Shown here piece by piece: positions 12,756 to 24,827 of a stretch of DNA of 64,000 nt. The stretch covers positions 64,001 to 128,000 of the forward strand of contig JAHQWH010000015.1 of the NCBI GenBank assembly GCA_029856105.1. The letters run 5' to 3'. Each line of letters begins with the position of its first letter. The stretch's first letter is position 1. The notes beneath the pieces were generated by a model. That model searched no databases and was not told the origin of the DNA. It saw only the letters and a program-made list of their open reading frames with translations. Origin of the DNA: Promethearchaeia archaeon. GTDB taxonomy: Archaea > Asgardarchaeota > Lokiarchaeia > Sigyniarchaeales > SOKP01. The position numbers were made by a program, and so were the translations under genes.

Positions 12756-13376
12756 ATGGAAAAAAAAAGTTTAGGACTATTCTTAGTTGTTCTGGGATTT
12801 ATCTTTCTTGGCATTGCTGTGGTTACGATTTGGAGTATGTTTTTCGGCTTTGATGCAACTAAAGGGTTATACATCATTTTAGCAATTCCCTTAATGGTTT
12901 TTAGTGTAACCACTATATTTTTCGGGTTTTATTTAATAACACGAGTTAATTTAGGTTTAAAGACTAAAGGATTAATCTTATTAGTTGATGGGCTAATTCC
13001 AATAATTGCTTCCGTGTATGCTATGTTAGATCCCCGACTTAGCGTGATTAATGACATACGAATTCTGGTATTACTACCTTTAACGCTAGTAGGCATATTT
13101 ATTGTAGTTTATAGCGTTTTTCTATTAACTGCTGATGTATATATAGACGGAATTAAAACCAGAAAAAGAGCAAACAAGATATTAGGAATAATTTCCATTG
13201 CTATAGGACTTGCTAATATAGCTGCGTTTATTGTATTAATATCAATCTCTGGGGAACAACCAGTTATTTTATCGGTATTTTGGTTATTAATTGGGGTGAT
13301 TTCGATTTATTTTGGCGTTCATTTATTTATCAAGAAAGTCGAAGAGAAACAAAAGTATACAAAAAGAAAAAGATAA
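12756..13376 (+). CDS. Hypothetical membrane protein (~6 TM)
   Basis: Six hydrophobic segments and a basic C-terminus. Confidence 0.75.
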   Translation: MEKKSLGLFLVVLGFIFLGIAVVTIWSMFFGFDATKGLYIILAIPLMVFSVTTIFFGFYLITRVNLGLKTKGLILLVDGLIPIIASVYAMLDPRLSVINDIRILVLLPLTLVGIFIVVYSVFLLTADVYIDGIKTRKRANKILGIISIAIGLANIAAFIVLISISGEQPVILSVFWLLIGVISIYFGVHLFIKKVEEKQKYTKRKR

Positions 13377-13418
13377 AAGAAATATAAAAAAATATATTAT
13401 TTATTTTTAACATTCTAA

Positions 13419-14909
13419 TTAAGGATCGTTCCTAAAGGGATGACGCGCATTTTCAGCGTTTTGAATACCGTCATCTACCGTTGGTAACCCTTCCATAGCC
13501 TTTCGAATGGCGTTTCTTGTAGCTTTATAGTTATTAATAAATACGCGTTTTCGAGCGCTCGCGCTAGGATGTACAAATACATTTACAATTATTACGATAT
13601 CCTCTGCGGCTTCTTTAGGAAGAATTCCATCCTCTACGCATTTCATTACCGCTTTTGCTACTGCTGCTTGAGCAGGACCATAAGTTAAACTTGCGTGGCG
13701 CATGGAAGTTATTTTAACAGTAGGGATCATAACTGTCGCAGGTTTGACTTGCATGTTTGGTTCGAGAATCACCTGTAACCCTTCACGCCCTTTCGCGGGA
13801 TGTGTTAAAGCACGAGCATAAGCATCACCTACGGGTCCCTTCTTATTTCCTATTAAAAGATCAATATGTGCTAACTCTGCTCTACTGCCAACGAGCGATT
13901 CACCAACTTTTAAGCTGAAATCAGAGATTTTTTCAGGTGTAACACCCACTGCGTAAAAACGGCTCGTTAATTCTTTATCATCTATCTCGAACTTAACTTC
14001 TTTCTTTTCGATATATCCTAACTTTTCAAGTTCAACTCTAAATTCGTCTTGGAGTTCGTAGGAAAGAGCGTCTCCTAAAATGATCGGGCGTCTAGTTGTG
14101 CCTACTGGAACGCCCATCAAATTCAAGCACTCTTTGGCACCTAAAGCTCCAGAATTGATTAGCATTCGAGCTAACTTTTGTACTTTTTTTTGTAGAGTCT
14201 GTGCTTCAAGTAACCGATTGTTTTTTACATGGTCGTAAATTTCGAGCCATACTTTAGGAATAACATTAGCAGAACCAAGTATGCAACCCGCAGCACCACC
14301 AGCTAAAGCACCTAATACATTTTCGTCCCACCCTATTAGAACGGAAATTTTATCACTTACTTTCTCTAAAAGCGCAGAGAAATATTTGTAGTCACCGCTA
14401 GAATCCTTTATCGCAACGAAATTATCAGTATCAACAAGATCTTCTACAACAGTCCAAGGTAATTCTACCCCCGTACAGACGGGAATATTGTACAACACCA
14501 ACGGTATATCGGTTTTTTCTGCGATCCTAAAATAATGGTCATACAACCCTTTTGCCTTAGGTTTGAGATAATAGGGTGTTACGATTATAGCCGCGTCTGC
14601 ACCGATGTCCGTTGCAGCTTTAGTAGCATCAATTACCAATTTTGTTCCAGTTTCTCCAGTCCCAGCAATTACAGGAACTCTACCATTCGTTTCATCGACG
14701 ACTATTTCTATAACTTTCAAACGTTCCTCAAAAGTCATGTTAACGAACTCTCCAGTCGTTCCTACCGGAACAAGGCCCGTAACTCCTTGATCTATGAGAT
14801 GGTTTACTAAATTTCTAAGGTTTTCTTCGTTAATTGATTCATCTTCTTTATTAAAAGGAGTTACTAATGCGGGCATAACTCCTGTTGGTCTAAAATCAAA
14901 TTTTCCCAT
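13419..14909 (-). CDS. DapA/NAL-family class I aldolase fused to a C-terminal formaldehyde-activating enzyme (Fae) domain
   Basis: N-terminal part: ALVTPF, GTTGEF, LYNIP, IKDSSGD. C-terminal part: VGESLVG, AHIDLLIG, KPATV, GPAQAAVAKAV, VFVHP, NYKAT and terminal HPF, as in Fae. ATG at 14909 follows a GAGGT RBS. Confidence 0.88.
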   Translation of the reverse strand: MGKFDFRPTGVMPALVTPFNKEDESINEENLRNLVNHLIDQGVTGLVPVGTTGEFVNMTFEERLKVIEIVVDETNGRVPVIAGTGETGTKLVIDATKAATDIGADAAIIVTPYYLKPKAKGLYDHYFRIAEKTDIPLVLYNIPVCTGVELPWTVVEDLVDTDNFVAIKDSSGDYKYFSALLEKVSDKISVLIGWDENVLGALAGGAAGCILGSANVIPKVWLEIYDHVKNNRLLEAQTLQKKVQKLARMLINSGALGAKECLNLMGVPVGTTRRPIILGDALSYELQDEFRVELEKLGYIEKKEVKFEIDDKELTSRFYAVGVTPEKISDFSLKVGESLVGSRAELAHIDLLIGNKKGPVGDAYARALTHPAKGREGLQVILEPNMQVKPATVMIPTVKITSMRHASLTYGPAQAAVAKAVMKCVEDGILPKEAAEDIVIIVNVFVHPSASARKRVFINNYKATRNAIRKAMEGLPTVDDGIQNAENARHPFRNDP

Positions 14910-14943
14910 TTTAATTAACCTCAATTTTTATTATCATCATCAT

Positions 14944-16236
14944 CTAACGATGATGTAAATTTTTAGCAGCTATAAATGTAAGTCCCTTTTTGGTTAAAGC
15001 TTCAGCTGTAGTATTAATAGCTTCATATCGGTCGAGAAGGTTTACGCGTAATGCTTCCCATATTCCCGCTTCTTCAATAGCCTCCTTAGTCATGAAATAT
15101 TCAAGAATATCCGTAGGATGTTCCCGTTTTTCGTCAACATCAACATTTGCTCCCTCATGTTTCGCACTTACATTCTTAACTTTCTTAGCTAATTCCATTA
15201 ATTCGTCTCGGCGGTCATAAGGCTGCCTTACAATACTTTTCCATGTTTCAGTTATATGGTGTTCTATTCGTACTACATCTTCAAAGCCAAATTCTTTTCT
15301 TATATAGGCAGTTACTTCAATAGTTTCGTTATTAACTGAATTGGCAAGGTTAAAGCCAATCAAGGGGCTAGTTCCATCTTCACGGGCAAACAATTTGGCA
15401 GTCATTAACGTCCATAGACAAGCGTAAGGATTATCGTTTCCTAAATAGACTGAAATTTTAAACTCATTATTAATACCAAGTTTATGGATGATATAGCCCA
15501 ATAAAACGGTACCAAGATTCACATTAAGAACTTGTTGGATTCCGTAGTTAGTATAATAATAAAGATATTCATCAAACCATTTTAATGGAAAGTTGTTTGG
15601 CATTCCAACGCCTCCAAAATAGCCAGTAATAGTTTCAGGTCCACCAAGATGTACATTTACAGGCATACCATCTGGACCAGGGGCAGTTCCCTTAGTGTCA
15701 AGAGTTTCGACCCAGGTCGAACCAATAATTTGCATTGCCGCAGCCATAGCTAGTAAATCCCCGTCTTCTTCCTGTTCTTTCATGTATCTCACGCGAATAA
15801 TTCTACCAGGTATTATCTTTTGATTTTCAACGGCGTCTCTTACCATATCCATCAAGAAAGGAAAGTATTGACACGCAGAAAGTTCTAATGTTATAGCATA
15901 GTCTTCGTCGAAAGTCATTTCAGATGTTTTGTCACCTAAAATCTTTTTTCTATAATCTGCTATGCTAATAAAAGAATTATTGTCGCGTTGAGAAATTAAC
16001 CACTCAATATCCTTAACATATTCTGGCTTTTTCTTTTTTAACTTTTCGAGCAAGTTTTCTACTTTACTGGCCTCTTCTGCCTTTCTATTAATCTCTTCTA
16101 TTCCGCCATATTTATCTACTATATCTAAAAGATCGTTTATCAATGGATTTTTTTCGTCCAATAAGAAATCGTTTATTACTTTTAATGCGTCGTCTGGAAT
16201 TTTCAATTTTTTTCTTAAATCGTTCATTTTTATCAT
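14944..16236 (-). CDS. Conserved hypothetical soluble protein (430 aa), upstream of and co-oriented with the aldolase-Fae gene
   Basis: Long intact ORF with enzyme-like stretches (ETLDTKG, NVHLGGPETITGYFGG, RIEHHITE, SAKHEG). Ends 34 nt before the next ATG. Confidence 0.8.
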   Translation of the reverse strand: MIKMNDLRKKLKIPDDALKVINDFLLDEKNPLINDLLDIVDKYGGIEEINRKAEEASKVENLLEKLKKKKPEYVKDIEWLISQRDNNSFISIADYRKKILGDKTSEMTFDEDYAITLELSACQYFPFLMDMVRDAVENQKIIPGRIIRVRYMKEQEEDGDLLAMAAAMQIIGSTWVETLDTKGTAPGPDGMPVNVHLGGPETITGYFGGVGMPNNFPLKWFDEYLYYYTNYGIQQVLNVNLGTVLLGYIIHKLGINNEFKISVYLGNDNPYACLWTLMTAKLFAREDGTSPLIGFNLANSVNNETIEVTAYIRKEFGFEDVVRIEHHITETWKSIVRQPYDRRDELMELAKKVKNVSAKHEGANVDVDEKREHPTDILEYFMTKEAIEEAGIWEALRVNLLDRYEAINTTAEALTKKGLTFIAAKNLHHR

Positions 16237-16435
16237 TTTCCTTATTTTTTTGTTAATATTTTATATATGAATTTTGAATTCTACCCAAAGAATTCCCATA
16301 ATTCCAACTTTCATTGGAAGAGATCATAAATTTAATACATTTCATTATATTATAAATTTATTTGTACAATTGCAAAAAGTTTTAACGATATCCAAAATTG
16401 ATAATTAAAAGAATTTAATTTCAAGAGTAAAGAAA

Positions 16436-18036: not shown

Positions 18037-18873
18037 TTAAGGTTTCAAAATCAAATTTATCTTTTCTAATCTTTTTTCTCTTGACATGCTGTTTTTTACT
18101 GGATTAAAACTCCCGTAAAGACTTTTATGATAAACTTCTCTTATTTCTTGGTAAAAAATTCCTATCGTAAAACGATGTGCCTGCCTAGCAATCTTTAAAA
18201 CCTCATCTTTCGACTTACCATTATTATCTATATATTCAATATTATCTTTAAATTCCTCCCATTTATGATAGGGCATGGCAGGTTGCAGGATTTCGATAAA
18301 GGAAAAGCCTTCATGCTCTATAGCTTTTACAAGAGTGTTCGTTAAATGTTTAACTTCACCAGCATAACATCTTGCCACGAATGTTGCTCCTACTTCAATA
18401 AGTAAAGATATGGGATTGAAAGGAATCTCAAAACTTCCCTTTGGAGTTGATGGGCCTTTCCAACCCTCTTGAGTTAAAGGAGAAAACTGACCTGTTGTGA
18501 GAGCATAGACTCCATTATTATGCAGTATCATAGTGATATCCATGTTGCGTTTTGCTGCAAAGAGAGTATGGGCTAACCCTTCTCCTAATCCACTCCCATC
18601 GCCAGAAAAAGTTATTACTTTTAAATTAGGATTAGAAATTTTGAATCCAGAAGCAGTGGTTATTTCTCTTCCATGCAATGAATAAATTCCACTTAAATTA
18701 AGATAATCAAACATTTTCGCATGGCACCCTATACCCGCTGTCATAACAATATTCTCTCTTTTGATCCCTCTTTGCTCTAATAGAGGAATTGCATTTCTTA
18801 TCGCAGTAAAAATTCCAAAATTTCCGCATCCTGGACACCATGTAACTTCAGCATAAGTTTTTAGATCTTCCAT
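18037..18873 (-). CDS. korB: 2-oxoacid:ferredoxin oxidoreductase beta subunit
   Basis: WCPGCG, GIGC and the TPP motif GDG...NNGVYALTTGQ. Start placed at ATG 18873, just after the alpha-subunit stop. Confidence 0.9.
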   Translation of the reverse strand: MEDLKTYAEVTWCPGCGNFGIFTAIRNAIPLLEQRGIKRENIVMTAGIGCHAKMFDYLNLSGIYSLHGREITTASGFKISNPNLKVITFSGDGSGLGEGLAHTLFAAKRNMDITMILHNNGVYALTTGQFSPLTQEGWKGPSTPKGSFEIPFNPISLLIEVGATFVARCYAGEVKHLTNTLVKAIEHEGFSFIEILQPAMPYHKWEEFKDNIEYIDNNGKSKDEVLKIARQAHRFTIGIFYQEIREVYHKSLYGSFNPVKNSMSREKRLEKINLILKP

Positions 18874-18874
18874 C

Positions 18875-20536
18875 TTATTGAAGCACCTCCTTAATCTTTT
18901 TTGATAATTCAATTGGATCAAATGGGCGTCCATCATACTTTTTAATCGTAGTTCTTATTTTTAACCTTGCTTTTTCTTTTAAAAGAGTTGTAAATTGTCC
19001 TGTAGAGCTTTGTTCAATTACTATATTATCTTGATTTTTAAATTCCGCTAATTCCCAAGTTGGTAATGGACTTAAAAATATTGGTTGAACGATTGTAGGG
19101 TTTAATCCCCCATACCTTAGAGCTTCTAAAACGCTCATGTAAGTCGAACCATACGCAAAAAGATTGGTGTTCATCTCTCCTCGAATAATATTAACAGTAT
19201 ATTGACTCTTTAAATATTCTACAAGCGCTTTAAGTTTTTTATTTCTCTTGTCATGCATTTTTGCTATCATCTCGGCATTCTCAGTCGTTACGCCAAATTC
19301 GTCGTGTTCGTAGCTATTCCACTTAATTACTTCTTTCGAGGGTGGAAATAACATTGGAGAAATTCCATCTTCAGCGTTATGATATCTTTTATAATTTTCC
19401 CCTTGATACATTTTAGGTTTTGCCCATTTTGCCTTATCTACATCGATATCAATTGTCATGCTACATTCTGATAAGTGTTTCTCTGTGAGCAGAATTCCTG
19501 GTGTTTGAAACTTCCAAACAAGATCTAGCATTTCCGCAGTTAAATAATAAGAGTCTTCTATCGTTCCCGGAGATGCTACTATTCGCAAAAAGTCACCGTG
19601 ACCAGCAGAAAGAGCAAAACTTAGATCAGCTTGTTCGGTATAAGTAGGTACCCCTGTAGCAGGTCCTGGTCTTTGTGATAAGACTATGAGAATAGGAGCT
19701 TCAGTAATCCCTGCTAAGGAAATACCTTCGGTCATAAGCGCGAAACCTCCACCACTGGTTCCAACCATTGATCTTGCCCCAGTAAATGTAGACCCAATTG
19801 CCATGTTAATTACAGCAAGTTCGCTTTCAGCATGAACAACTGCTAACCCAAAGTTTTCTGTTTGCTTTGCTAAAAAGTGCAATATTGAAGATGCTGGCGT
19901 CATAGGATATCCAAAATACGTATCTAAACCGCCAGCTATAGCTCCCAGACTTATTGATTCGTTTCCTGTAATAATTGGTCTTACTTTTTCTCCTTTAGTT
20001 AATAAAAATTTACCTTGACACCCGCCTTTTACCATATCGTAGATGGTATTTGCAAATTTAACGTTATCTTCGATACCTCTTGGATATTGATTCTTTATAC
20101 TTTCATTCATTTGCTCTTTTTTGAATCCTATTGCTGATGCTAAGATTGCTACAGCCCCTACACCGTACATCAGGTTTTTCATGGGATATTTTTCAGCTTC
20201 TGAACTGAATGGAATTCCAACGCCATCAACATCTTCTAGTTCGTCTGAGTTATAGATAATAAGTCCTCCATCAGCTAGATCGTTAATGTGAGTTTCGCAA
20301 CTTCGCTTATCAAAGTTAACTAGAAGATCCGCTTTCATGTAATAGCTACTAATCCATCTAGTGGAAGTGCTAACTATAGAAAAATTGTGTCCTCCTCTAA
20401 TTAGGCTCATATAATCGTCCATTTGAAATACACGCTGTCCTATACTAGCAAATATATGAGCTGCCACAGATCCAGCTTTTTTTACGCCTTCTCCCGCCTT
20501 TCCTCCAACCAGAAACGTAAAGATGTCATTAACCAT
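18875..20536 (-). CDS. korA: 2-oxoacid:ferredoxin oxidoreductase alpha subunit (gamma-alpha fusion)
   Basis: GGKAGEG, IRGGHN, GYPMTPAS, TSGGGFALM, QRPGPATG. Confidence 0.92.
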   Translation of the reverse strand: MVNDIFTFLVGGKAGEGVKKAGSVAAHIFASIGQRVFQMDDYMSLIRGGHNFSIVSTSTRWISSYYMKADLLVNFDKRSCETHINDLADGGLIIYNSDELEDVDGVGIPFSSEAEKYPMKNLMYGVGAVAILASAIGFKKEQMNESIKNQYPRGIEDNVKFANTIYDMVKGGCQGKFLLTKGEKVRPIITGNESISLGAIAGGLDTYFGYPMTPASSILHFLAKQTENFGLAVVHAESELAVINMAIGSTFTGARSMVGTSGGGFALMTEGISLAGITEAPILIVLSQRPGPATGVPTYTEQADLSFALSAGHGDFLRIVASPGTIEDSYYLTAEMLDLVWKFQTPGILLTEKHLSECSMTIDIDVDKAKWAKPKMYQGENYKRYHNAEDGISPMLFPPSKEVIKWNSYEHDEFGVTTENAEMIAKMHDKRNKKLKALVEYLKSQYTVNIIRGEMNTNLFAYGSTYMSVLEALRYGGLNPTIVQPIFLSPLPTWELAEFKNQDNIVIEQSSTGQFTTLLKEKARLKIRTTIKKYDGRPFDPIELSKKIKEVLQ

Positions 20537-22240: not shown

Positions 22241-22636
22241 ATGAGTTTAGAAAATTTAATTTTATTAACTGGTCGAACTATTAATCAGGGAGTAGCTCTT
22301 GAAGGTGGAAAAGTAACAAAAGAGAATGTCCGAGCTGCGGGCATATGTGCCTTCGATAGAGTCGATTTTAAGAAACTAGATTGTCTTGTTGGAACTCCCG
22401 TTAAAATTACAACTGATTTTGGAGAAGTTATAGTTTATTCTACAATTTCAGAAGAGGGACCTCATCCCGGGATATTATTTGTTCCGATGGGTCCATGGGC
22501 TAATCAGCTTGTGAATCCCGATTCGCAAGGGTGTGGCACTCCAACATATAAAGGGATGAAAGCAAAGGTTGAAGTTATTAAAAGCGGAAAGGTATTAGAT
22601 GCTTTGGAATTAATAGGAAAATTGAAAGAAGCTTAA
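22241..22636 (+). CDS. fwdD: Formylmethanofuran dehydrogenase subunit D
   Basis: LLTGRTINQG, FVPMGPWAN, GTPTYKG. Confidence 0.92.
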   Translation: MSLENLILLTGRTINQGVALEGGKVTKENVRAAGICAFDRVDFKKLDCLVGTPVKITTDFGEVIVYSTISEEGPHPGILFVPMGPWANQLVNPDSQGCGTPTYKGMKAKVEVIKSGKVLDALELIGKLKEA

Positions 22637-22640
22637 AGGA

Positions 22641-23975
22641 GTGAAAAGTATGGTAGAAAGAAAGCTTAAGACGATATATGACGTTCCGTGTCCATTTTGT
22701 GGAACTTTTTGTGATGACCTAGAAATTGATATGGATGTTAAAGAAAATAAAGTTGTTGAAGTTAGAAACGCTTGCCAAATCGGTACTAAAAAATTCTTAT
22801 CCTCAAATAGCGAGCATCGTTATTTAAAGCCTTTAATTAAAAAGAAAGGAGAGTTTAAAGAAGTTTCATGGGACGAAGCACTTGATAAAGCTGCCGAGAT
22901 ATTAATTAAAGCAAAAAGACCTCTATTATATGGGTTTTCTAGTACTGAATGTGAAGCTCAAAGTAAAGGCGTTGAGTTAGCAGAAACTTTAAATGCTCTT
23001 TTAGATAATACGGCTTCGGTTTGCCATGGTCCTAGCTTATTAGCAATTCAAGATGTCGGTGCGCCATCGTCAACATTAGGAGAATATAAAAATAGAGCCG
23101 ATTTGGTAATATTTTGGGGATCTAATCCAGTTCATGCCCATCCTCGACATTTAAGTAGATACAGCAGTTTTGTAAGGGGTTATTTTAGAAATGACGGTAG
23201 AAACGATAGATTTATCGTAGTTGTAGATCCAAGAAATACTCACACTGCCCAAATTGCAGACTTATACATCAAGATAAATCCTAACGAGGATTATCAACTA
23301 CTAAATGCAATTAGAGCTATGATAAGAGGTACAGAACTAGACGTAAAAGAAGTTGCTGGCGTTCCAATAGAAAAAATGAAAGAACTAGTGAAAATATTAA
23401 AATCGTGTAAGTTTGGAGTAATCTTCTTCGGCATGGGTTTAACGCATACATTAGCACATCATCGCAATGTTGACACAGCAATATGCCTAGTTAGGGAGCT
23501 GAACGATTATACTAAATTTCTTTTAACTCCCATGCGAGGGCATTACAATGTAGCTGGAGCAAATCAAGTTTTTACTTGGAATACAGGCTACGCGTATTCT
23601 ATCGACTTTTCAAGAGGATATCCGCGTTATAATCCTGGAGAATTCTCTTCTGTCGATCTTCTAACGAGAGACGAAGTAGACGCCGCATTAATTGTAGCCT
23701 CTGATCCAGCAAGTAATTTTCCCGCAGCGTCAGTAAGAAACTTATTCAAACATCCGCTAATTTCAATAGAACCGCATGAAACCCCGACATCTGCATTTGC
23801 CGACGTAATTTTACCTGCAGCGTTTGCCGGAATTGAGTGCGAAGGAACTGCTTACCGTATGGATAAAGTCCCTTTAAGATTGAGGAAAGTAAAGGAACCA
23901 CCGGGAGAATGTTTGCCTGATAAAGAAATATTAGAAAGATTAATTGAAAAAGTGAAAGAAAAGATGGGTGAGTAA
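22641..23975 (+). CDS. fwdB: Formylmethanofuran dehydrogenase subunit B (W/Mo-pterin; Cys ligand)
   Basis: CPFCGTFCDD, DNTASVCHGPS, HAHPRH, MRGHYNV, GTAYRMD. Confidence 0.95.
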   Translation: MKSMVERKLKTIYDVPCPFCGTFCDDLEIDMDVKENKVVEVRNACQIGTKKFLSSNSEHRYLKPLIKKKGEFKEVSWDEALDKAAEILIKAKRPLLYGFSSTECEAQSKGVELAETLNALLDNTASVCHGPSLLAIQDVGAPSSTLGEYKNRADLVIFWGSNPVHAHPRHLSRYSSFVRGYFRNDGRNDRFIVVVDPRNTHTAQIADLYIKINPNEDYQLLNAIRAMIRGTELDVKEVAGVPIEKMKELVKILKSCKFGVIFFGMGLTHTLAHHRNVDTAICLVRELNDYTKFLLTPMRGHYNVAGANQVFTWNTGYAYSIDFSRGYPRYNPGEFSSVDLLTRDEVDAALIVASDPASNFPAASVRNLFKHPLISIEPHETPTSAFADVILPAAFAGIECEGTAYRMDKVPLRLRKVKEPPGECLPDKEILERLIEKVKEKMGE

Positions 23976-23978
23976 AGT

Positions 23979-24827
23979 TTGACCGATATTAAGTTAAAAA
24001 TAAAAAAGAAACTAAAATTTCCTTTAGAAGCAGATAGTATAACACCAGATAATTTCGCTGGGAAAACTTTAAGCGATATCAAGAAATTACCGTTATATTA
24101 CGCTAAAGAACTAAAGACTATTGGCGATTTTTTTGATGTTTCTGGAAAATCAGCTGAAGTTGCTAACACTAAAATTGTTATAGATGGCGATGTCTCTAAC
24201 GTAAAGCGTATTGGCGAAAAAATGAAGGGAGGAGAAATAGTGATTAATGGTGATGTCGGTATGCACGTGGGAAATAACATGTCTGGGGGAAAAATCGTAG
24301 TTAATGGAAATGCGGACGATTGGGCTGGAGCTATGCTTAAAGGTGGTGAACTTGAAATCAATGGAGATTCTGGGCATTATACGGGCTCTGCATATAGAGG
24401 ATTCTGGCAGGGAATGAGAAATGGTGTGATTCGAGTTAAAGGAAAAGTAGGTAGCGAATCAATGATATGGGCAAACGGTTCTATAATTGCTAAAAGATTC
24501 CCTACTTTATATTGTGGCGGAGCAGCAGCTTTTTTAGGGCTTCATTCACATGGTGCGACAATCGTAGTTGAAGGCGATGCAGACCGCTGCGTTGGAGCAG
24601 ACCAAATAAAGGGAACTATAGTGATTAAGGGAAAAACCCCCGTATTACCATCATTTGTAAAAATTGGGGAAGTTAAAGAAATCGAACTATTCAATGGTGA
24701 AAAAATAACCGGAAAGTTTATTGAGTACAGTGGAGACCATTCTGTAAAGAAAAACCATTCTGCTATTAGTAAAAAGACTGGGGAACTTAATATAGGTGTC
24801 AATGGTAGGTTATTTGTAGCCGCATAA
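23979..24827 (+). CDS. fwdC: Formylmethanofuran dehydrogenase subunit C
   Basis: LEADSITPD, GXGXG beta-helix repeats (G..M.GG.I.I.G), GSAYRG. Confidence 0.92.
   Translation: MTDIKLKIKKKLKFPLEADSITPDNFAGKTLSDIKKLPLYYAKELKTIGDFFDVSGKSAEVANTKIVIDGDVSNVKRIGEKMKGGEIVINGDVGMHVGNNMSGGKIVVNGNADDWAGAMLKGGELEINGDSGHYTGSAYRGFWQGMRNGVIRVKGKVGSESMIWANGSIIAKRFPTLYCGGAAAFLGLHSHGATIVVEGDADRCVGADQIKGTIVIKGKTPVLPSFVKIGEVKEIELFNGEKITGKFIEYSGDHSVKKNHSAISKKTGELNIGVNGRLFVAA

Follow-up and report, generated by a model that had tools for sequence, protein, structure and literature searches.

A DHDPS-Fae fusion protein and its orphan TIM-barrel partner may couple the tetrahydromethanopterin one-carbon pool to 4-hydroxy-2-oxobutanoate in Asgard archaea

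We analyzed a stretch of 64,000 nt (the window) of contig JAHQWH010000015.1 from assembly GCA_029856105.1 of a Promethearchaeia archaeon (Lokiarchaeia, SOKP01), and all coordinates are positions in this stretch unless a contig or locus is named. The unit under study consists of two minus-strand open reading frames (ORFs), one upstream at 14944-16236 encoding a 430-aa orphan protein (the partner) and one downstream at 13419-14924 encoding a DHDPS-family aldolase fused to a formaldehyde-activating enzyme (Fae). Judging from its sequence, the latter is most likely a Fae-lyase fusion that would work like PanB and is accompanied by an orphan partner family. On balance, we lean toward a module in which the fusion, working alongside the partner, carries out the reversible reaction 4-hydroxy-2-oxobutanoate (HOB) + tetrahydromethanopterin (H4MPT) <-> pyruvate + methylene-H4MPT, which would feed or drain the homoserine node.

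The two genes and the landmarks of the fusion are listed below. Residues of the fusion are numbered according to the 501-aa reading of its ORF, which starts at TTG 14924.

14944..16236 (-), gene of the 430-aa orphan enzyme (P0002); its homologues begin at the second ATG, 16227, which gives 428 aa
13419..14909 (-), gene of the DHDPS-family aldolase::Fae fusion, 496 aa from ATG 14909, with an open frame up to TTG 14924
14079..14888 (-), class I (Schiff-base) pyruvate-aldolase barrel of the DHDPS/NAL family, from Pfam DHDPS and alignment to 2yxg
14490-14492 (-), Tyr145 in LYNIP, by codon check
14475-14477 (-), Cys150 at the DHDPS Arg position, by codon check
14406-14408 (-), Schiff-base Lys173 in IKDSSG, by codon check
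13908..14078 (-), linker forming a C-terminal barrel extension with an LSYE..R.ELEKLG motif, common to all fused proteins in alignments
13434..13907 (-), Fae domain with AHIDL and C-terminal ARHPF motifs, from Pfam Fae and alignment to 1y5y
13866-13868 (-), His353 of AHIDL in the Fae domain, by codon check; Asp355 belongs to the same motif

The start codon of the fusion is probably ATG 14909, which is preceded 9 nt upstream by a GAGGT ribosome-binding site and yields 496 aa as in homologues, while TTG 14924 falls within that ribosome-binding site. The Pfam DHDPS profile matches residues 13-282 (E 1.5e-74), and the Fae profile (PF08714) matches residues 340-497 (E 3.6e-58, 196.5 bits with a cut-off of 27), spanning profile positions 1-158 of 159. 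The protein also passes the NCBIfam models TIGR00674 for dapA (232.6 bits, equivalog cut-off 206.15) and TIGR03126 for fae (193 bits, cut-off 118), and its barrel gives weak matches to KDG-type aldolase models of NCBIfam. The barrel carries, besides Tyr145 and Lys173, a GTTGE motif at residue 55 (Thr57, Glu59). The Fae domain aligns end to end with the solved Fae of M. extorquens, 1y5y (E 8.6e-31), and His353 and Asp355 line up with its AHIDL motif, the His and Asp of which presumably line the H4MPT site. This domain is predicted to catalyze the conversion of formaldehyde and H4MPT to methylene-H4MPT. Pfam detected no PF02548 (PanB) match in the fusion, and there is no Hps domain either, since the Fae-Hps model NF009833 matches the Fae part alone, with 159.8 bits against a cut-off of 274.

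Twelve fused proteins, drawn from eight Asgard families, were aligned. The residues for pyruvate binding and Schiff-base formation (GTTGE, Tyr, and Lys) and the His/Asp motif of Fae are invariant across fusions that are 41-100% identical, and the 57-residue linker is conserved. In contrast to these constant features, the position at which DHDPS enzymes bind the carboxylate of aspartate semialdehyde (ASA), Arg138 in E. coli, is Cys, Leu, or Val in all 12. The window protein reads YNIPVCTG, whereas the corresponding stretch is YNVPSRT in M. jannaschii DHDPS (2yxg) and YNVPSRTG in the DapA of the same genome. That DapA is encoded on contig C110 of the 3.66-Mb, 92% complete assembly, scores 334 bits on the dapA model, and directly adjoins dapB; a canonical Fae-Hps (541 bits) is found elsewhere in the genome. 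Since the ASA-binding Arg is lost and the genome contains a separate canonical dapA-dapB pair, the sequences support the view that the fusion is not the DHDPS of the lysine pathway. An earlier sequence-only reading of this DNA had held the same view, and had noted the complete DapA/NAL barrel with its GTTGE, LYNIP Tyr, and IKDS Lys, the full Fae domain retaining the AHIDL His, and the replaced DHDPS Arg, all of which we recovered. No lysine genes lie beside the fusion in the loci examined.

Fused proteins are widespread. More than 120 near-full-length homologues of 495-496 aa, with 84-98% identity, come from metagenome-assembled genomes (MAGs) labeled Promethearchaeota, Hodarchaeota, and Thorarchaeota, and public sources label the fused homologues 4-hydroxy-tetrahydrodipicolinate synthase. 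In a sample of 301 Asgard genomes, in which we refer to families as f, genera as g, genomes as G (G000 being the genome of the window), and loci as L, 143 have matches covering both domains (41-100% identity). The fusion also occurs in a few Chloroflexota. An assembly artefact as the origin of the fusion, a possibility that the sequence-only reading had raised, is ruled out by these many homologues and by the long contigs on which they lie.

Several genomes contain tandem DHDPS-Fae fusion pairs (L025:8428-11339 and L026:6608-9519 in f9, L032:8303-11191 in f11, and L059:7270-10171 in Anaerolineae), and Chloroflexota MAGs contain such pairs too, where the contigs reach 525 kb in length. In the upstream copy the Fae part is degenerate and truncated, with neither the His/Asp of AHIDL nor the C-terminal tail, so that the two copies might assemble into a hetero-oligomer whose Fae sites are divided. 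The Thor-type tandem fusions are immediately preceded, on their own strand, by two conserved proteins of 817-869 aa (L026:1103-6162 and L025:11755-16757) with no Pfam, NCBIfam, or PDB match. The genome of the window holds another unusual aldolase fusion, a 693-aa protein (contig C191:26878-28959 (+), equivalent to L003:1492-3573) in which a third DHDPS-family domain (74 bits) is joined to an APH-type phosphotransferase domain.

The distribution of the fusion follows that of the H4MPT pathway, for which we used Mch (PF02289) as a marker. Mch is present in every fusion-bearing family, i.e., f1, f9, f11, f14, f15, f18, f20, f23, f29, and genus g11 of f2, and in the genome of the window (contig C225). 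Within the Asgard sample, no fusion turned up in the families that lack Mch, namely f7 (0/28), f24 (0/21), f16, f19, and f22. Since the fusion is found only in families with Mch, these observations support a tie to H4MPT metabolism. The sequence-only reading had proposed such a link and had pointed to Fwd genes 6 kb away; the link is supported, and in this DNA FwdD, FwdB, and FwdC do lie at 22241-24827, ~6 kb from the upstream end of the operon.

The partner belongs to a large family for which sequence and profile searches of the 430-aa protein gave no Pfam, NCBIfam, or PDB match. It has at least 8000 homologues at E <= 0.001 and is present in 175 of the 301 Asgard genomes with 63-96% identity. 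In bacteria it extends to Chloroflexota/Anaerolineae, Coprothermobacterota, Bacillota, Spirochaetes, Thermodesulfobacteriota, and Acidobacteriota. The family is 60-70% identical between archaea and bacteria, the bacterial member P0243 being 62% identical to the window protein. An AlphaFold2 model (pLDDT 91.8, pTM 0.91) shows an N-terminal helical domain (residues 1-106) followed by a (beta/alpha)8 barrel (residues ~115-420). Foldseek placed class II aldolases first (E about 2e-4, TM-score 0.3-0.45), VIA-align returned a flat list with Z of 11-12 in the generic TIM-barrel range (5d88, Z 10.9), and the best shapes in the ESM Atlas were U32-type clusters (TM-score 0.55 by query, 0.69-0.74 by target). 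There is no Pfam match to PF01136 (U32) and no invariant Cys among homologues, and language-model look-alikes were uninformative for function. Structure prediction with Foldseek, which had been suggested in the sequence-only reading, thus yielded a confident TIM barrel but only generic barrel similarity and no family. Many of the charged residues on the barrel strands vary little or not at all in the family, including Glu118, Arg150, Lys182, His196, Lys260, Asp268, His326, His327, and His360. From its model, the partner looks like an enzyme of an undescribed family, and our guess is that its substrate could be this same C4 2-oxoacid, or one close to it, on which it would act as a metal-dependent lyase or isomerase.

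Two further families touch on the partner. Where it is missing (f11, f14, and f15), the fusion is preceded by a ~320-aa protein (L024:10026-11015 (-), L032:7340-8287 (+), and L023:6421-7359 (-)) belonging to a conserved orphan family of ~315-330 aa, with at least 1688 members in Asgard, Bathyarchaeia, and Chloroflexota. Its model is a TIM barrel as well, and YdjI and other class II aldolases are its best PDB matches (Foldseek E 1e-8). Comparison of the two families by hhalign (probability 32%, E 5e-4) is only suggestive of homology. In addition, a 385-aa partner homologue with 46% identity (L036:7001-8158) lies on a 41-kb contig flagged by a virus-sorting tool, among many small ORFs and ERCC4, Vsr, and clamp-loader-like genes, and it may be a viral auxiliary metabolic gene.

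Three types of neighbor recur beside the partner gene. The gene lies directly upstream of the fusion in f1, f2, and f29. In the Mch-less f7 and f24, it is followed by an aminotransferase, homoserine dehydrogenase (HSD), aldehyde:ferredoxin oxidoreductase (AOR), and a second aminotransferase. We also surveyed 80 partner loci, most of them bacterial. A PanB-family gene lies within 1.5 kb of the partner in 49 of the 80, upstream and on the same strand in 46, and its identity was Pfam-confirmed for L037. PanB takes a hydroxymethyl group from methylene-tetrahydrofolate and attaches it to a 2-oxoacid at C3. In three Anaerolineae loci, the place of PanB is taken by tandem DHDPS-Fae fusions after the partner gene. 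At least two PanB copies are present in four of five bacterial genomes tested, the partner-adjacent copy scoring clearly lower in two; in the remaining genome it is the only copy. HSD and AOR genes accompany the partner in 3/80 loci. Elsewhere in bacteria it is found near genes for an ELFV-type amino-acid dehydrogenase, an aldehyde dehydrogenase, MFS transporters, and subunits of a CoA-transferase.

A PALP enzyme that resembles threonine synthase and ends in a PadR/HxlR-type winged helix was also seen (L027:5715-7193 (-), and in the genome of the window on contig C12, L118:1600-2763). Its gene is the divergent neighbor of the partner gene in f9. In f15, genes of the threonine-synthase family with comparable length are located at a distance of 10-13 kb from the fusion.

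These data can be assembled into the following scheme. The DHDPS-fold domain would form a Schiff-base enamine with pyruvate and make or break the C3-C4 bond of HOB, while the Fae domain would move the formaldehyde unit to or from 5,10-methylene-H4MPT, for a net reaction HOB + H4MPT <-> pyruvate + methylene-H4MPT + H2O. The fusion would then correspond to PanB-type 2-oxoacid hydroxymethyltransferases, with H4MPT as its carrier and a design that follows the logic of Fae-Hps, and the conserved module that it forms with the 430-aa TIM barrel would join the H4MPT one-carbon (C1) pool to the homoserine/aspartate-semialdehyde node. We link HOB to homoserine, aspartate semialdehyde, and aspartate because the aminotransferase, HSD, AOR, aldehyde dehydrogenase, and amino-acid dehydrogenase neighbors would supply those steps. 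We infer HOB as the substrate, channeling of formaldehyde, and the physiological direction, HOB from gene context only. The sequence-only reading had already voiced the idea of a pyruvate aldolase handling formaldehyde, for example, via HOB; this gained comparative support from the PanB and the aminotransferase/HSD/AOR neighbors of the partner. The proposed chemistry is feasible: in the engineered homoserine cycle, promiscuous aldolases turn pyruvate and formaldehyde into HOB on the way to homoserine (PMC8879981).

The occurrence of HSD bears on the direction of the reaction. HSD is nearly absent in fusion-rich families (f9 3/76, f14 0/19, f15 0/3, and f29 0/11) and present in the fusion-less families f5, f10, f21, f7, and f24. 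The genome of the window has the fusion and, at 92% completeness, no match to HSD (PF00742) or PanB (PF02548); in its genus, PanB is found in 24/27 genomes and HSD in 15/27. Since HSD is scarce in fusion-rich families and present in fusion-less ones, the pattern fits an anabolic role, in which the homoserine skeleton would be made from pyruvate and a C1 unit. Transporters and catabolic regulators near partner genes would favor cleavage, as would analogy with Fae-Hps, which in archaea is thought to run in the formaldehyde-releasing direction. ThrB (TIGR00191), which we considered as a test of the anabolic role, is missing from G000 and from 9/10 good Asgard genomes regardless of HSD and is not discriminating. 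We weigh anabolic synthesis of the homoserine skeleton and catabolic cleavage of HOB about equally.

Several observations weigh against the HOB scheme. The complementarity of HSD and fusion is a trend and not a rule, with at least 14 genomes of f1, the family to which the genome of the window belongs, having both genes and three g2 genomes having neither (G049, 99% complete; G195, 95%; and G291, 88%), and the counts come from related genomes, which are not independent samples. Partner and fusion are unlinked in f9 and f18, the fusion occurs without the partner in f14, f15, and f23, and in f11 too it is preceded by the ~320-aa protein instead. Some bacterial partner genes lie in sugar or sugar-acid clusters (ILVD_EDD dehydratase, Dak, and PfkB), which the scheme would fit only if HOB arose there by tetronate dehydration, a speculation. 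The score of the barrel exceeds the dapA equivalog cut-off, and among solved structures true DHDPS enzymes are nearest to it. Finally, the solved Fae is pentameric and DHDPS enzymes form dimers or tetramers, two oligomeric states that a fusion would have to reconcile.

Three other explanations have to be set against the HOB scheme. The sugar-acid clusters raise the possibility that the substrate of the aldolase is a 2-keto-3-deoxy sugar acid of larger size or a different 4-hydroxy-2-oxoacid, the module serving sugar-acid catabolism and the Fae domain being an oligomerization scaffold, a binder of another pterin, or a scavenger of stray formaldehyde. Distant partner homologues indeed lie beside an ILVD_EDD dehydratase, a metallo-beta-lactamase-fold protein, Dak1/Dak2, and an IclR regulator, and others beside MFS, GntR, PfkB kinases, and a sugar-isomerase-type barrel. 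Moreover, the DHDPS family includes KDG-type aldolases, whose models the barrel matches weakly. We nevertheless regard this as unlikely: the catalytic motif and full length of Fae are kept across deep divergence, the fusion is confined to families with Mch, and what is most often found next to the partner in bacteria is a PanB-type enzyme, which transfers C1 units, and no enzyme of sugar acids.

That same neighbor, which is the sole PanB copy in one of the five genomes tested, might instead signal pantothenate/CoA synthesis. The fusion would then be an H4MPT-dependent ketopantoate hydroxymethyltransferase (alpha-ketoisovalerate + methylene-H4MPT -> ketopantoate), with the partner as a pantoate-pathway enzyme. 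Such a role looks improbable in view of the canonical PanB that coexists with the fusion in most Asgard genomes (f9 67/76, f14 18/19, f29 11/11, g1 24/27, and g2 20/22) and that, in the Asgard genomes compared (G075 and G259), is not beside the partner gene. The second PanB in four of the five bacterial genomes, in two scoring clearly above the partner-adjacent copy, and the HSD/AOR/aminotransferase contexts, which are foreign to pantoate synthesis, argue in the same direction, and DHDPS-family enzymes typically use pyruvate, not a branched 2-oxoacid. Lastly, the TIGR00674 score (232.6 bits vs. 206), the best solved relatives, and the public names of homologues would suggest an authentic DapA (4-hydroxy-tetrahydrodipicolinate synthase) with an incidental Fae domain, but this is highly improbable given that the ASA-binding Arg is missing in all fused orthologues examined, that a stronger dapA (334 bits) sits beside dapB in the same genome, and that the loci examined have no lysine-gene neighbors.

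The HOB scheme can be extended to a more tentative proposal, which we consider possible though rather doubtful. Asgard archaea and some Chloroflexota might have a natural C1 + C3 -> C4 route in which methylene-H4MPT (in bacteria, methylene-tetrahydrofolate via a PanB paralogue) and pyruvate would give HOB and then homoserine and the aspartate family, with help from the orphan barrel. Such a route would parallel the engineered homoserine cycle in nature and would stand in for HSD in lineages without it. Our literature search found no description of a DHDPS-Fae fusion, of Fae in Asgard/Lokiarchaeota, or of a natural (carrier-coupled) archaeal HOB aldolase. If the proposed function is correct, 1) a gene labeled DapA across hundreds of Asgard genomes would be a different enzyme, 2) the Wood-Ljungdahl C1 pool would be joined directly to pyruvate and C4 amino-acid metabolism, and 3) HOB, known in the papers found only from designed formaldehyde-assimilation pathways and termed a non-native metabolite in a review (PMC8879981), would occur naturally and have an aldolase dedicated to it and coupled to a carrier. 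The orphan barrel family, almost always beside a C1 or 2-oxoacid enzyme, would point to an undescribed pathway of anaerobes that abound in sediments. Reconstructions of metabolism in the archaeal relatives of eukaryotes would change, and synthetic C1 biology would be supplied with natural enzymes.

Within the window, the surroundings of the two genes include the following elements.

16255..16268 (-), candidate archaeal promoter, an A/T-rich TATA-like box upstream of the first gene, read by eye
14910..14943 (-), intergenic spacer of 34 nt with the GAGGT ribosome-binding site and no terminator-like element seen on reading
13340..13418 (-), candidate archaeal terminator, a T-rich tract after the fusion stop codon, from sequence reading

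The partner and fusion genes look like a two-gene operon, as the sequence-only reading had supposed for the fusion and its then unassigned 430-aa neighbor, which still has no family match. They look like a single operon because the 34-nt spacer carries a GAGGT site without a terminator-like element, and like one of only two genes because there are a T-rich tract and a convergent gene downstream and a divergent gene upstream. The pair is also adjacent in relatives. The divergent upstream gene encodes a UDP-glucose dehydrogenase, and the convergent downstream ORF (12756-13376 (+), 206 aa) has no Pfam or NCBIfam match. At 2 kb from the operon is a 2-oxoacid:ferredoxin oxidoreductase of two subunits (alpha, 553 aa, and beta, 299 aa; 18037-20536 (-)), the position of which near the operon is kept in at least one relative (L006).

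How does this module compare with known systems? The partner shares its (beta/alpha)8 barrel with class II aldolases (FBA, TBA, and YdjI) and U32 barrels, but it has no sequence match to them, lacks the conserved Cys cluster of U32, and has an extra N-terminal helical domain. Its TM-score against class II aldolases is just 0.3-0.45, and it has conserved histidines of its own (His196, His326, His327, and His360). The fusion has the same fold as DapA/DHDPS (TIGR00674) and class I pyruvate aldolases, with GTTGE, the catalytic Tyr, the Schiff-base Lys, and an above-cut-off score, but it differs from DapA by lacking the ASA-binding Arg, by its 57-residue linker and Fae domain, and by being a paralogue of the dapA-dapB copy. 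In Fae-Hps (NF009833; tetrahydromethanopterin hydro-lyase/3-hexulose-6-phosphate synthase), Fae is likewise fused to a formaldehyde-handling C-C lyase, so that a carbon skeleton is tied to methylene-H4MPT. However, Fae is N-terminal there and C-terminal in the fusion, the lyase is an Hps of OMP-decarboxylase fold and not a class I DHDPS-fold pyruvate aldolase, and the substrates are ribulose-5-phosphate/hexulose-6-phosphate and not, as is probable for the fusion, pyruvate/HOB. With PanB (PF02548), the fusion would share hydroxymethyl transfer between a pterin C1 carrier and C3 of a 2-oxoacid, and a PanB-family gene takes the equivalent place beside the orphan barrel gene in 49/80 mostly bacterial loci. 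PanB is a single-domain metal enzyme using methylene-tetrahydrofolate, whereas the fusion combines a Schiff-base aldolase with a separate H4MPT domain, and no sequence relationship between the two was detected. The reaction proposed here also occurs in the engineered homoserine cycle, where RhmA and related promiscuous E. coli aldolases act on pyruvate and formaldehyde and the resulting HOB is aminated to homoserine (PMC8879981). That cycle is designed and relies on side activities and free formaldehyde, whereas the fusion would be a dedicated, natural, and carrier-coupled enzyme.

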